A DNA stretch of 20,473 nucleotides, taken from assembly GCF_003334315.1 (NCBI RefSeq), contig NZ_QOWR01000068.1. One strand, given 5' to 3'. A model generated the notes under the pieces. That model did no database searches. It saw only the letters and a list, made by a program, of their open reading frames with translations, and was not told the DNA's origin. This stretch comes from Escherichia coli. Its GTDB lineage: Bacteria > Pseudomonadota > Gammaproteobacteria > Enterobacterales > Enterobacteriaceae. This document shows, one piece after another, positions 9,678 through 12,569 of this stretch. How positions within the stretch are numbered: the stretch's first letter is position 1; each line of letters begins with the position of its first letter. A program made the position numbers and the translations under genes.

Positions 9678-11360
9678 ATGAAGTCTGCATTAAAGAAAAG
9701 TGTCGTAAGTACCTCGATATCTTTGATACTGGCATCTGGTATGGCTGCATTTGCTGCTCATGCGGCAGATGATGTAAAGCTGAAAGCAACCAAAACAAAC
9801 GTTGCTTTCTCAGACTTTACGCCGACTGAATACAGTACCAAAGGAAAGCCAAATATTATCGTACTAACCATGGATGATCTTGGTTATGGACAACTTCCTT
9901 TTGATAAGGGATCTTTTGACCCAAAAACAATGGAAAATCGTGAAGTTGTCGATACCTACAAAATAGGGATAGATAAAGCCATTGAAGCTGCACAAAAATC
10001 AACGCCGACGCTCCTTTCATTAATGGATGAAGGCGTACGGTTTACTAACGGCTATGTGGCACACGGTGTTTCCGGCCCCTCCCGTGCCGCAATAATGACC
10101 GGTCGAGCTCCCGCCCGCTTTGGTGTCTATTCCAATACCGATGCTCAGGATGGTATTCCGCTAACAGAAACTTTCTTGCCTGAATTATTCCAGAATCATG
10201 GTTATTACACTGCAGCAGTAGGTAAATGGCACTTGTCAAAAATCAGTAATGTGCCGGTACCGGAAGATAAACAAACACGTGACTATCATGACAACTTCAC
10301 CACATTTTCTGCGGAAGAATGGCAACCTCAAAACCGTGGCTTTGATTACTTTATGGGATTCCACGCTGCAGGAACGGCATATTACAACTCCCCTTCACTG
10401 TTCCAAAATCGTGAACGTGTCCCCGCAAAAGGTTATATCAGCGATCAGTTAACCGATGAGGCAATTGGCGTTGTTGATCGTGCCAAAACACTTGACCAGC
10501 CTTTTATGCTTTACCTGGCTTATAATGCTCCGCACCTGCCAAATGATAATCCTGCACCGGAGCAATATCAGAAGCAATTTAATACCGGTAGTCAAACGGC
10601 AGATAACTACTACGCTTCCGTTTATTCTGTTGATCAGGGTGTAAAACGCATTCTCGAACAACTGAAGAAAAACGGACAGTATGACAATACAATTATTCTC
10701 TTTACCTCCGATAATGGTGCGGTTATCGATGGTCCTCTGCCGCTGAACGGGGCGCAAAAAGGCTATAAGAGTCAGACCTATCCTGGCGGTACTCACACCC
10801 CAATGTTTATGTGGTGGAAAGGAAAACTTCAACCCGGTAATTATGACAAGCTGATTTCCGCAATGGATTTCTACCCGACAGCTCTTGATGCAGCCGATAT
10901 CAGCATTCCAAAAGACCTTAAGCTGGATGGCGTTTCCTTGCTGCCCTGGTTGCAAGATAAGAAACAAGGCGAGCCACATAAAAATCTGACCTGGATAACC
11001 TCTTATTCTCACTGGTTTGATGAGGAAAATATTCCATTCTGGGATAATTACCACAAATTTGTCCGTCATCAGTCAGACGATTACCCGCATAACCCCAACA
11101 CTGAGGACTTAAGCCAATTCTCTTATACGGTGAGAAATAACGATTATTCGCTTGTCTATACAGTAGAAAACAATCAGTTAGGTCTCTACAAACTGACGGA
11201 TCTACAGCAAAAAGATAACCTTGCCGCCGCCAATCCGCAGGTCGTTAAAGAGATGCAAGGCGTGGTAAGAGAGTTTATCGACAGCAGCCAGCCACCGCTT
11301 AGCGAGGTAAATCAGGAGAAGTTTAACAATATCAAGAAAGCACTAAGCGAAGCGAAATAA
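9678..11360 (+). CDS. ydeN: Ser-type sulfatase, periplasmic, 560 aa
   Basis: Signal peptide MKSALKKSVVSTSISLILASGMAAFAAHA; sulfatase signature S-G-P-S-R-AAIM-T-G-R (Ser at the modified position); AGAGGAA upstream. Confidence 0.9.
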   Translation: MKSALKKSVVSTSISLILASGMAAFAAHAADDVKLKATKTNVAFSDFTPTEYSTKGKPNIIVLTMDDLGYGQLPFDKGSFDPKTMENREVVDTYKIGIDKAIEAAQKSTPTLLSLMDEGVRFTNGYVAHGVSGPSRAAIMTGRAPARFGVYSNTDAQDGIPLTETFLPELFQNHGYYTAAVGKWHLSKISNVPVPEDKQTRDYHDNFTTFSAEEWQPQNRGFDYFMGFHAAGTAYYNSPSLFQNRERVPAKGYISDQLTDEAIGVVDRAKTLDQPFMLYLAYNAPHLPNDNPAPEQYQKQFNTGSQTADNYYASVYSVDQGVKRILEQLKKNGQYDNTIILFTSDNGAVIDGPLPLNGAQKGYKSQTYPGGTHTPMFMWWKGKLQPGNYDKLISAMDFYPTALDAADISIPKDLKLDGVSLLPWLQDKKQGEPHKNLTWITSYSHWFDEENIPFWDNYHKFVRHQSDDYPHNPNTEDLSQFSYTVRNNDYSLVYTVENNQLGLYKLTDLQQKDNLAAANPQVVKEMQGVVREFIDSSQPPLSEVNQEKFNNIKKALSEAK

Positions 11361-11372
11361 CTAAACCTTCAT

Positions 11373-11392
11373 GCGGCGGATTTTTCCGCCGC
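11373..11392 (+). terminator. GC-rich hairpin between ydeN and ydeM (weak U-tract)
   Basis: GCGGCGGA-tttt-TCCGCCGC, 13 bp after the ydeN stop and 20 bp before the ydeM ATG. Confidence 0.4.
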
Positions 11393-11411
11393 CTTATTGA
11401 GCGAGATAGCG

Positions 11412-12569
11412 ATGCACGTTACAGCCAAGCCCTCCAGTTTTCAATGTAATCTCAAATGTGATTACTGTTTTTACCTTGAAAAAGAGTCGCAGTTTACTCA
11501 TGAAAAATGGATGGATGACAGCACTCTGAAAGAGTTCATCAAACAATATATCGCAGCGTCTGGCAATCAGGTCTATTTTACCTGGCAAGGCGGTGAACCC
11601 ACTCTGGCTGGCCTGGATTTTTTCCGTAAAGTTATTCACTATCAACAACGCTATGCAGGCCAAAAACGTATTTTTAATGCATTACAAACGAATGGCATTT
11701 TATTGAATAATGAATGGTGTGCCTTTCTCAAAGAACATGAATTTCTGGTTGGTATCTCGATCGATGGCCCCCAGGAGTTACATGACCGTTACAGACGCAG
11801 TAATTCAGGTAACGGTACTTTTGCAAAAGTGATAGCAGCCATCGAGCGTCTGAAATCATATCAAGTAGAGTTTAATACGTTAACCGTCATTAATAACGTT
11901 AATGTCCATTACCCTCTTGAGGTTTATCATTTTTTAAAATCTATCGGCAGTAAACATATGCAATTTATCGAATTGCTAGAAACCGGGACGCCGAATATTG
12001 ATTTCAGTGGTCATAGTGAGAACACATTCCGTATCATTGATTTTTCTGTGCCTCCCACGGCTTATGGCAAGTTTATGTCAACCATTTTTATGCAATGGGT
12101 TAAAAACGATGTGGGTGAAATTTTCATCCGTCAGTTTGAAAGCTTTGTCAGCCGTTTTTTGGGGAATGGGCATACCAGTTGTATTTTCCAGGAGTCCTGC
12201 AAGGATAATCTGGTTGTTGAAAGTAATGGAGACATTTACGAATGCGACCATTTTGTCTATCCACAGTACAAAATTGGAAACATTAATAAATCTGAACTCA
12301 AAACGATGAACAGTGTACAACTGACAGCGCAAAAAAAACGGATTCCAGCGAAATGTCAGCAATGTGCATATAAACCTATCTGCAATGGCGGTTGTCCTAA
12401 GCATCGTATTACTAAAGTAAACAATGAGACTGTTTCTTATTTTTGCGAAGGTTATAAAATCCTTTTTTCAACCATGGTACCTTATATGAACGCCATGGTA
12501 GAGTTAGCTAAGAACAGAGTACCGCTTTACCACATTATGGATGTTGCAAAACAAATGGAGAATAATTAA
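11412..12569 (+). CDS. ydeM: radical-SAM anaerobic sulfatase-maturating-enzyme homologue, 385 aa
   Basis: CxxxCxxC cluster C-NLK-C-DY-C near the N-terminus; C-terminal Cys-rich SPASM-like cluster ([17 protein letters not shown]). ATG at 11412 preferred over the in-frame TTG at 11397 used by the ORF track. Confidence 0.88.

Follow-up and report, generated by a model that had tools for sequence, protein, structure and literature searches.

The ydeN–ydeM locus of Escherichia coli: a Ser-type sulfatase and a predicted anaerobic maturase separated by a hairpin that recurs in relatives

The window analyzed here, a 20,473-nucleotide stretch of Escherichia coli DNA, spans the ydeO–ydeN–ydeM–yddA region and matches E. 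coli at 100%. Of 5426 complete genomes, 5382 carry the region, and 5324 (about 98% of strains) retain 80% or more of the query. On the plus strand lie ydeN (9678–11360), which encodes a 560-residue S1 (formylglycine-dependent) sulfatase of the Ser type, as judged from Pfam, RefSeq, conserved catalytic residues, and an AF2 model, and ydeM (11412–12569), which encodes a 385-residue radical-SAM/SPASM anaerobic sulfatase-maturating enzyme (anSME), as judged from TIGR03942, Pfam, and an alignment with 4K36; exactly 51 nt (11361–11411) separate them. The initial annotation had placed the same two genes at these positions, and curated models, Pfam, RefSeq annotation, and a comparison of eight lineages all agree with it. 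RefSeq describes the pair as a sulfatase and an anaerobic sulfatase maturase under the names ydeN and ydeM. The pair has been discussed since the computational description by Schirmer & Kolter 1998 (as cited in PMC10878103) and has come up again in studies of regulons and of adaptation to the gut; the identification of a sulfatase and its maturase thus adds nothing to what is already known. Within E. coli, synonymous changes far exceed nonsynonymous ones in ydeN–ydeM, and the module is under purifying selection; ydeN is nevertheless a pseudogene in O157:H7 EC4115 owing to an internal stop, and in one strain an IS2 element is inserted within ydeM. The locus is ordinary, except for a small intercistronic hairpin, which recurs in relatives.

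YdeN matches Pfam Sulfatase PF00884 (2e-70) over all model positions, 1–301 of 301. Its sulfatase signature, S132-G-P-S-R136-AAIMTGR (SGPSRAAIMTGR, residues 132–143, 10071–10106, plus strand), aligns to the C/S-G-P-S-R of S1_19 structures, with Ser132 (codon TCC) in the (C/S)xPxR position and the xxxx-TG part also in place (AAIM-T-G). YdeN contains no cysteine, and conversion to formylglycine (FGly) is expected at Ser132. A Ser at this position had been noted from the initial inspection of the sequence, and the reading holds well beyond E. coli: SGPSR occurs in 118 of the 118 close homologues that cover the site, and the nearest outgroups (at most 45% identity) are almost all Cys-type, so that the Ser-type signature looks to be a trait of the YdeN clade. 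Among 69 homologues, the columns of D66, D67, R136, H185, D345, and K364 are invariant and those of K183, H286, and N346 are at least 90% conserved; the metal- and sulfate-binding set (DD, K-x-H, H, DN, K) is complete. No NCBIfam equivalog cut-off was reached by YdeN. The AF2 model (pLDDT 92.4) finds its best PDB matches among S1_19 sulfatases, followed by one S1_16 entry, at TMt 0.78–0.83.

The YdeN N terminus, inspected by eye and with a hydropathy scan, resembles a Sec-type signal peptide, predicted to cover residues 1 to about 29 (MKSALKK...AFAAHA, followed by ADD; 9678–9764, plus strand), with a basic n-region, a hydrophobic core at residues 8–27, and an A-H-A site; a search of this segment for a twin-arginine motif found none. 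The N terminus has low pLDDT in the AF2 model, and the N termini of all YdeN orthologues are comparable. YdeN is listed in a tolA outer membrane vesicle (OMV) proteome and in a rumen-fluid proteome, both of which bear on localization only indirectly. The initial annotation had spoken of an anaerobically matured periplasmic sulfatase; a Ser-type sulfatase with an anSME partner stands, and its predicted maturation is better described as oxygen independent and dependent on a radical-SAM enzyme. Our search of the literature on YdeN and YdeM found no report of FGly, of YdeM activity, or of YdeN sulfatase activity.

YdeM scores 505.5 bits against the anSME equivalog model TIGR03942 (curated cut-off, 349.45; model positions 1–362 of 363), and the other two anSME models fall below their cut-offs (PRK13745, 364 bits versus 484; the third, 255.5 versus 441). 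Pfam recognizes Radical_SAM (3e-22) and SPASM domains, and YdeM aligns with Clostridium perfringens anSMEcpe (4K36) over residues 4–359 with E = 6e-63. The radical-SAM cluster motif C12-NLK-C16-DY-C19 (C12-x3-C16-x2-C19; 11445–11468, plus strand) aligns to C15/C19/C22 of anSMEcpe, and the SPASM region (12180–12446, plus strand), with eight auxiliary-cluster cysteines and D279, aligns one to one with its counterpart. YdeM E-C278-D279-H falls on P-C276-D277-F of anSMEcpe, in which we take D277 to be the catalytic Asp described by Goldman et al. 2013. With the cysteines of anSMEcpe assigned to clusters as in PMC5682303, YdeM C257, C263, C278, and C328 correspond to Aux I (C255/C261/C276/C330) and C315, C318, C324, and C345 to Aux II (C317/C320/C326/C348). 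The auxiliary-cluster cysteines are conserved in all eight orthologue lineages, and all 11 Fe-S cysteines of the solved C. perfringens enzyme are kept in YdeM, which therefore has three complete [4Fe-4S] cysteine sets. The CxxxCxxC motif and C-terminal Cys cluster that had suggested an anSME at the outset are thereby accounted for residue by residue. We place the ydeM start at the ATG at 11412, and not at the TTG at 11397, because the orthologues all begin MH(V/I/F)T.KP. A degraded Shine-Dalgarno sequence ahead of ydeM in E. coli was considered and rejected since its anti-SD duplex (–5.5 kcal/mol) is comparable to those of the orthologues (–3.5 to –6.3 kcal/mol).

Orthologues 69–84% identical to the E. 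coli genes occur in eight lineages: Aeromonas, Yersinia, Anaerobiospirillum, Iodobacter, Leminorella, Proteus, Shewanella, and Salmonella. In all eight the maturase gene lies directly 3' of the sulfatase gene and the sulfatase is Ser-type, and maturase identity tracks sulfatase identity across lineages. The flanks of these pairs are unrelated and often mobile (IS elements, plasmid Rep genes, ICE genes). From these comparisons, ydeN–ydeM appears to be a compact, horizontally mobile two-gene module that has spread among gut and aquatic Proteobacteria. The initial annotation called the maturase dedicated; the conserved adjacency suggests as much, and yet adjacency is not obligatory, since some E. 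coli carry a Ser-type YdeN paralogue (565 aa) with no maturase next to it.

The 51-nt gap holds a GC-rich hairpin at 11373–11392 on the plus strand (GCGGCGGA-UUUU-UCCGCCGC), with an 8-bp stem in which seven of the eight pairs are G-C, a 4-nt loop, and a weak U-tail; it begins 12 nt past the ydeN stop and ends 19 nt ahead of the ydeM ATG. Stem, coordinates, and gap length are all as the initial annotation had described them. The fold of the whole gap (–18.7 kcal/mol, z = –3.06) is equaled by only 1 of 200 dinucleotide shuffles and so exceeds chance. It is identical in the five E. coli sequences compared. Hairpins of different sequence occupy the same gap position in seven other lineages, and z is –2.86 or lower in seven of eight lineages (mononucleotide shuffles), whereas the 23 control gaps have a median z of –0.37 (p = 0.0016), although 6 of these 23 controls also reach z of –3 or lower; the Salmonella gap folds weakly (z = –1.4). 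The Aeromonas and Iodobacter hairpins differ by a compensatory C-G to U-A change. Across lineages, the distance from the hairpin end to the maturase ATG is always 12–25 nt, which leaves no room for a downstream promoter. A consensus terminator scan did not call the hairpin at 11373–11392 because U makes up only 4 of 8 positions in its 3' tail, CUUAUUGA; an intrinsic terminator is a stem-loop followed by a U-rich tract, and the E. coli element, GC-rich in its stem but weak in its U-tract, falls short of a textbook terminator, though it may behave as a leaky one. U-runs do follow the hairpin in Leminorella, Proteus, and Anaerobiospirillum. Rfam, searched over the region at a permissive threshold, returned only a sub-threshold isrK match on the opposite strand, which at 20 bits versus a cut-off of 50 we treated as chance.

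Expression data bear on what this hairpin could do. ydeN and ydeM are co-transcribed and are an AraC target (PMC10878103). In published mouse-gut RNA-seq, both genes are derepressed together upon araC deletion and ydeM has about 10-fold fewer reads per kb: in the deletion strain ydeN averages 5399 counts and ydeM 371.5, compared with 92.3 and 21.7, respectively, in the control strain (values used as tabulated in a single table and assumed to be normalized). Since ydeM is derepressed with ydeN, transcription must read through the hairpin. Mapping transcripts across the hairpin had been proposed at the outset, and published data go part of the way: the RNA-seq table places ydeN about 10-fold above ydeM, and the Term-seq tables of Adams et al. 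2021 contain no mapped RNA 3' end for ydeN at the hairpin, an absence that says little because the operon is poorly expressed in those media. We infer an attenuating role, as was originally suggested, from the positional conservation of the hairpin and the roughly 10-fold read drop in one in vivo RNA-seq table; the drop and the joint derepression fit a leaky barrier. The read ratio could instead stem from differential decay or from Rho-dependent polarity within ydeM. Adams et al. 2021 (supplementary file 2) list a Rho-dependent termination region at MG1655 1579674, minus strand, which converts via the MG1655 annotation to position 12528 on the plus strand of the window, 41 nt before the ydeM end. 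Past ydeM, the minimum free energy fold of 12570–12680 contains a candidate operon-end hairpin at 12623–12648, plus strand, with a 9-bp stem (CACCCGACA-N8-TGTCGGGTG) followed by TTTCGTC; the consensus terminator scan did not call this hairpin either.

The promoter upstream of ydeN has three repressors: NagC, GadX, and, in the presence of arabinose, AraC, which binds there only when this sugar is available. Two NagC operators reported in PMC3098098 each have an exact single match in the window on the plus strand: "ydeN2 middle" (GTTGTTTATCGGCGAGAAATTAC, 9497–9519) and "ydeN1 proximal" (CTTATTTCTCTTCGTAAAATTAC, 9621–9643), the latter 35 nt ahead of the ydeN ATG. A sigma-70-like consensus match, CTTACA-18-TAAAAT (9611–9640, plus strand), overlaps the proximal operator and is a candidate promoter only, because matches of this kind are no more numerous in the region than in shuffled sequence. 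A sulfonated azo dye induces transcription of the pair. In a published study, araC mutants had enhanced fitness in mice on a fiber-rich diet. The supplement of the fnr paper gives no ydeN or ydeM values.

Taken as a whole, the locus is probably best explained as a mobile module of a Ser-type sulfatase and its anSME in which YdeM matures YdeN, the hairpin sets an excess of sulfatase over maturase, and sugar-responsive repressors control both. We posit that, as in the family mechanism, YdeM would act in the cytoplasm, where unfolded pre-YdeN would lose the C-beta hydrogen of Ser132 to the 5'-deoxyadenosyl radical of the enzyme, and the residue would be oxidized to C-alpha-formylglycine without O2. 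Matured YdeN would then pass to the periplasm via Sec, where the FGly hydrate, together with D66/D67/D345/N346 binding the metal and R136/K183/H185/H286/K364 binding sulfate, could hydrolyze a sulfate ester. The conserved hairpin, acting as a leaky terminator or a 3'-end stabilizer, would keep the mRNA of the sulfatase, a stoichiometric substrate, about 10-fold above that of the catalytic maturase.

The choice of substrate is the weakest step. The best sequence matches of YdeN are S1_19 enzymes (E = 1e-52 to 1e-42, ~40% identity over residues 109–436), identity to S1_19 and S1_16 is about 26–40%, and YdeN carries, between the DD motif and the signature, an insertion of ~25 residues that is missing from S1_19 and S1_16 structures; low identity and the insertion mean that the specificity of these families is not transferable, and YdeN is accordingly left outside SulfAtlas S1_19, toward which only its best-match relations seem to point. 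The closest solved relatives are galactose-4-sulfatases (S1_19) and enzymes acting on 4S-Gal/GalNAc (S1_16); the gene cluster that holds the nearest non-orthologue also encodes a KdgM porin, an anSME, and enzymes of the tagatose pathway. Substrates of YdeN were described as unreported in 2024 (PMC10878103). A small sulfated sugar able to reach the periplasm is the probable substrate, most plausibly a residue of the 4-O-sulfated Gal/GalNAc type from host glycans or dietary carrageenan. The linked proposals that the hairpin sets a fixed sulfatase excess in a conserved mobile module and that YdeN is a periplasmic 4-O-sulfated Gal/GalNAc sulfatase are, taken jointly, unlikely. If they are true, E. 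coli and other facultative gut Proteobacteria would use YdeN, under NagC/AraC control, to desulfate fragments of host glycosaminoglycan or mucin, or of dietary carrageenan, in the anoxic gut. E. coli is not usually seen as a forager of sulfated glycans, yet the module is conserved, mobile, and derepressed in araC mutants. The positional conservation of the hairpin, if its role is real, would be a small example of stoichiometry control in a two-gene operon for an enzyme and its maturase.

Several alternatives need to be weighed. It is possible, though we doubt it, that the hairpin has no regulatory role: it may be an inert palindrome, or it may terminate transcription so efficiently that ydeM forms a unit of its own. 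The control gaps that fold equally well, the weak U-tail, the lack of a mapped 3' end in the Adams et al. 2021 Term-seq tables, and the unremarkable Salmonella gap would all fit; on the other side stand the non-homologous hairpins at the same position in seven of eight lineages, with the compensatory change between Aeromonas and Iodobacter, the spacing too short for a promoter of ydeM, and the readthrough implied by joint derepression. YdeM might also serve more widely, as a general anSME for AslA, YidJ, and the 565-aa paralogue, or as a RiPP maturase. anSMEs are described as acting on Cys and Ser substrates (PMC5682303), the Ser-type paralogue has no maturase of its own, and YdeM gives sub-threshold matches to DynA, DarE, and other RiPP maturase models. 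We find such a broader role unlikely: TIGR03942 was the only model passed, with the two other anSME models and every RiPP model below cut-off, sulfatase and maturase travel together and diverge in step in each of the eight lineages, and the operon contains no small precursor-peptide gene; the RiPP reading in particular was rejected, as all such models score far below their cut-offs (DynA, 218 versus 450).

More radical doubts concern the pair itself. It could be a cryptic, silenced remnant that looks intact, is never productively expressed, and brings E. coli no gain, as three repressors on one promoter, low basal counts in vivo, the low GC content typical of silenced foreign DNA (44% in ydeN and 39% in ydeM), the disrupted alleles in O157:H7 EC4115 (ydeN) and in the strain with IS2 (ydeM), and a literature devoid of reported activity might suggest. 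Silencing of this kind is hard to reconcile with retention of the region in 5324 of 5426 genomes, with the strong excess of synonymous changes, with 69–84% identity across genera, with strong derepression in the mouse gut upon araC deletion, with detection of the protein in OMV and rumen-fluid proteomes, and with induction by the azo dye, and we judge it improbable. Least credible of all, to the point of being very remote, is the notion that YdeN is some other hydrolase or transferase of the alkaline phosphatase superfamily, such as a phosphonate monoester hydrolase or a phosphodiesterase. A generic RefSeq name ("sulfatase-like hydrolase/transferase"), the missed NCBIfam equivalog cut-offs, and a weak Pfam Phosphodiest match leave room for it, but YdeN has the full S1 signature and every catalytic residue, its top neighbors by sequence and by structure are all bona fide carbohydrate sulfatases, the PehA model gives 67 bits where 900 are required, and a co-inherited anSME is sensible only for an FGly enzyme.

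A mobile sulfatase–maturase module, the reading we prefer, can be set beside several known systems. Klebsiella pneumoniae AtsA/AtsB likewise combines a Ser-type periplasmic S1 sulfatase exported by Sec (predicted for YdeN) with a neighboring three-cluster radical-SAM/SPASM enzyme, which turns the Ser into FGly. In Klebsiella, the maturase gene precedes the sulfatase gene and the operon responds to sulfur starvation, whereas E. coli has the order sulfatase, hairpin, maturase and the sugar-responsive repressors NagC and AraC; the nearest relatives of YdeN, moreover, are carbohydrate sulfatases and not the arylsulfatase AtsA. In vitro characterization of AtsB is cited in PMC5682303. C. perfringens anSMEcpe (PDB 4K36–4K39) shares with YdeM the RS motif, the GGE motif, the eight auxiliary Cys, and the catalytic Asp. 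The natural partner of anSMEcpe is a Cys-type sulfatase, whereas the predicted partner of YdeM is Ser-type. Within E. coli, AslA/AslB is the other pair of a sulfatase and an anSME homologue. PRK13745, which we take to be an AslB-like model, does not reach its cut-off of 484 with YdeM, which therefore falls in a distinct orthologue group. Both maturase genes (aslB, ydeM) were reportedly deleted in the study of Benjdia et al. 2007. The S1_19 carrageenan galactose-4-sulfatases (ZgCgsA 9HH2/9HH3; Pseudoalteromonas 6B0J, 6BIA, 6PSM) have catalytic motifs identical to those of YdeN and a TMt of about 0.80, but they are Cys-type, belong to marine PULs, and lack the ~25-residue insertion. The mucin and GAG sulfatases of Bacteroides thetaiotaomicron (S1_16 BT3796/BT3057, S1_11 BT4656) are gut-bacterial carbohydrate S1 enzymes that need a radical-SAM maturase for O2-independent activation (as cited in PMC10878103); among the best 50 structural matches to YdeN, the S1_16 structures rank 26 and 47, and BT4656, the homologue invoked in PMC10878103, ranks 50. 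B. thetaiotaomicron uses one anSME for many sulfatases across its PULs, whereas in E. coli one maturase travels with one sulfatase.

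By every criterion that can be tested on sequence, YdeN is a predicted Ser-type S1 sulfatase and YdeM a predicted anaerobic sulfatase-maturating enzyme (anSME). YdeN, the 560-aa product of ydeN (9678-11360), carries the Ser-type signature claimed by the initial annotation (SGPSRAAIMTGR, residues 132-143, nt 10071-10106), together with a complete Pfam Sulfatase domain (2e-70) and all of the S1 residues D66, D67, R136, K183, H185, H286, D345, N346 and K364, catalytic positions whose columns in a 69-sequence alignment are either invariant or conserved to at least 90%; it contains no cysteine. 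Judged by eye, its N-terminus (MKSALKK, a hydrophobic core, AHA|ADD, no RR) resembles a Sec signal peptide, and YdeN is among the proteins of an OMV proteome. The distance from the DD metal motif to the signature is ~64 residues in YdeN and most of its 30-45% identical relatives versus ~38-40 in S1_19-like sequences; the ~25-residue insertion of YdeN, located within residues ~68-131 (~9879-10070) and partly a high-confidence helix in the AF2 model, probably marks a separate subfamily.

The 385-aa YdeM is encoded from an ATG at 11412 to 12569, with the ORF listing extending to a TTG at 11397. The MH(V/I/F)T.KP N-terminus common to all eight orthologous maturases identifies the ATG as the true start and makes the gap to ydeN 51 nt, as initially proposed. 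The "anaerobic" in the enzyme's name denotes chemistry independent of oxygen, for which anoxia in vivo is not a prerequisite. The CxxxCxxC motif and C-terminal Cys cluster noted earlier are present as C12-x3-C16-x2-C19 and eight C-terminal cysteines, Pfam finds Radical_SAM and SPASM domains, and the curated anSME equivalog TIGR03942 scores 505.5 bits against a cut-off of 349.45. Residues 4-359 align with the solved Clostridium perfringens anSME 4K36 (E = 6e-63), with cysteines matching one-to-one those assigned there (PMC5682303) to the RS (C15/19/22), Aux I (C255/261/276/330) and Aux II (C317/320/326/348) clusters, and with D279 opposite D277. YdeM was also considered as a RiPP maturase and rejected, every RiPP-maturase model scoring far below cut-off.

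The strongest argument available that YdeM would serve YdeN comes from the behavior of the two genes as a unit. A maturase gene lies immediately 3′ of the sulfatase gene in Aeromonas, Yersinia pestis, Anaerobiospirillum, Iodobacter, Leminorella, Proteus, Shewanella and Salmonella, in flanks that are unrelated among lineages; maturase identity (52-68%, cluster cysteines all retained) tracks that of the sulfatase (69-84%), and codon changes within E. coli are predominantly synonymous (synonymous to nonsynonymous 22:3 in ydeN, for example). Adjacency despite unrelated flanks, parallel identities and synonymous excess thus describe a selected, mobile two-gene cassette. It appears horizontally mobile: the Aeromonas pair (comparison loci L002/L003) sits among IS elements with a porin gene upstream, the Proteus pair (L010) on an 8.4-kb Rep3/RelB-YafQ plasmid-like contig and the Salmonella pair (L012) beside TraI/UvrD ICE-like genes, and eight copies among E. 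coli genomes are plasmid-borne. YdeN orthologues make up a tight, isolated clade: the listed homologues are all at least 70% identical, the next representatives at most 45%. SGPSR is found in 118/118 close homologues covering the site and the nearest outgroups are nearly all Cys-type; Ser is therefore a derived, clade-defining trait.

Within E. coli the locus is widespread. Region 9400-12800 is 100% identical to strain HS30-1 and matched in 5382 of 5426 complete genomes, with at least 80% of the query covered in 5324. RefSeq annotates ydeO, ydeN ("sulfatase-like hydrolase/transferase"), ydeM ("anaerobic sulfatase maturase"), the antisense yneP and yddA. Only 14 of 3401 nt differ from K-12 MG1655 (two substitutions in YdeN, none in YdeM), so the K-12 literature is applicable here. 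In O157:H7 EC4115 (L016), ydeN has an internal stop at codon 491 and is annotated as a pseudogene beside an intact ydeM; this pathotype lineage has apparently lost the sulfatase. In strain UID2404240040, an IS2 splits ydeM into two annotated pieces. GC content is 44.1% in ydeN, 38.7% in ydeM and 43.8% in the whole window, compared with ~51% for E. coli, and the low GC of 9678-12569 fits a foreign origin and perhaps silencing. Some strains encode a second Ser-type YdeN paralogue (L009 6001-7698, L019 7747-9444; 565 aa, ~77% identity), of which one 90%-identity cluster holds 303 member sequences; a porin gene is directly upstream of the paralogue and an 85-aa ORF without a Pfam match comes after it, a strong hairpin directly follows its stop codon, and no radical-SAM gene is adjacent in L009 or L019.

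The ydeN/ydeM pairing is already known and in use in current literature, and was reportedly described by Schirmer and Kolter in 1998; the modest addition made here is the positional conservation of an intercistronic hairpin. The GC-rich stem-loop initially described at 11373-11392 (GCGGCGGA-UUUU-UCCGCCGC) is real by folding: the ydeN-ydeM gap reaches -18.7 kcal/mol (z = -3.06), equalled by 1/200 shuffles. A comparison of five E. coli sequences (the window, MG1655 and three divergent strains) shows the same gap in all, although noncoding flanks differ at 3-10% of positions in two of the strains. In each other lineage this gap also holds a stable hairpin, unrelated in sequence, that ends 12-25 nt ahead of the maturase ATG, and a compensatory C-G to U-A change distinguishes the Aeromonas and Iodobacter stems. 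Under identical shuffling, z is at most -2.86 in 7/8 sulfatase-maturase gaps (median -3.8), versus a median of -0.37 in 23 other codirectional gaps of the same loci (Mann-Whitney p = 0.0016).

What the hairpin does to the transcript can be read in two ways. In published mouse gut RNA-seq, average ydeN and ydeM counts, which we take to be normalized, were respectively 5399 and 371.5 in an araC-deleted strain and 92.3 and 21.7 in the control; the source describes the genes as cotranscribed and a direct AraC target (PMC10878103). The two are thus derepressed together, with ydeM lying below ydeN per kb ~10-fold when derepressed and 3-fold in the control. This drop fits a leaky terminator and a 3′-stabilizing hairpin equally. 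U-runs follow the hairpin in Leminorella, Proteus and Anaerobiospirillum and are absent in the others, including E. coli, where a consensus terminator scan makes no call at 11373-11392 because the tail CUUAUUGA is U-poor; the published Term-seq tables (Adams et al. 2021) list no 3′ end at the hairpin and place a region of Rho-dependent termination for the ydeNM transcript at ~12528, 41 nt before the ydeM stop. That region lies just upstream of the overlap with yneP, a small annotated ORF (12535-12657, minus strand) that is antisense to the final 35 nt of ydeM and spans a downstream hairpin (12623-12648). The sole consensus intrinsic terminator in 9200-12900 (9324-9346, an 8-bp stem then CGTTGTTTTT) falls just past ydeO and divides it from the ydeN promoter region.

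Upstream, the published NagC operators (PMC3098098) occur verbatim at 9621-9643 and 9497-9519, the proximal one overlapping a promoter-like match. GadX is a repressor of ydeN-ydeM, and AraC binds upstream of ydeN only with arabinose. These sugar-responsive controls (NagC, AraC) point to YdeN being a carbohydrate sulfatase. The sulfonated azo dye FD&C Red No. 40 significantly induced a single E. coli gene, ydeN, whose deletion left azo-dye depletion unchanged (PMC10653809).

By sequence and AF2 model (pLDDT 92.4), the best solved relatives of YdeN are S1_19 carrageenan galactose-4-sulfatases (TMt 0.79-0.83), followed by S1_16 4S-Gal/GalNAc enzymes; the GlcNAc-6-sulfatase BT4656, the homologue cited in the mouse gut study (PMC10878103), ranks 50 among structural matches. 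The closest nonorthologue, P0122 (43% identity, Cys-type), is encoded in locus L017 within a cluster (1252-10348) that contains a DeoR regulator, a second sulfatase, a KdgM porin, an anSME, a PF10022 protein, a class II aldolase, a PfkB kinase and a GatZ/KbaZ-like gene, including tagatose-pathway genes, and looks like a sulfated Gal/GalNAc utilization locus. The S1_19/S1_16 matches, the sugar controls and the P0122 cluster together suggest, as a low-confidence guess, that the YdeN substrate may be a small 4-O-sulfated Gal/GalNAc-type compound; the S1_19/S1_16 structures are only 26-40% identical to YdeN and lack its ~25-residue insertion. As a system, ydeN-ydeM would operate like Klebsiella AtsA/AtsB.
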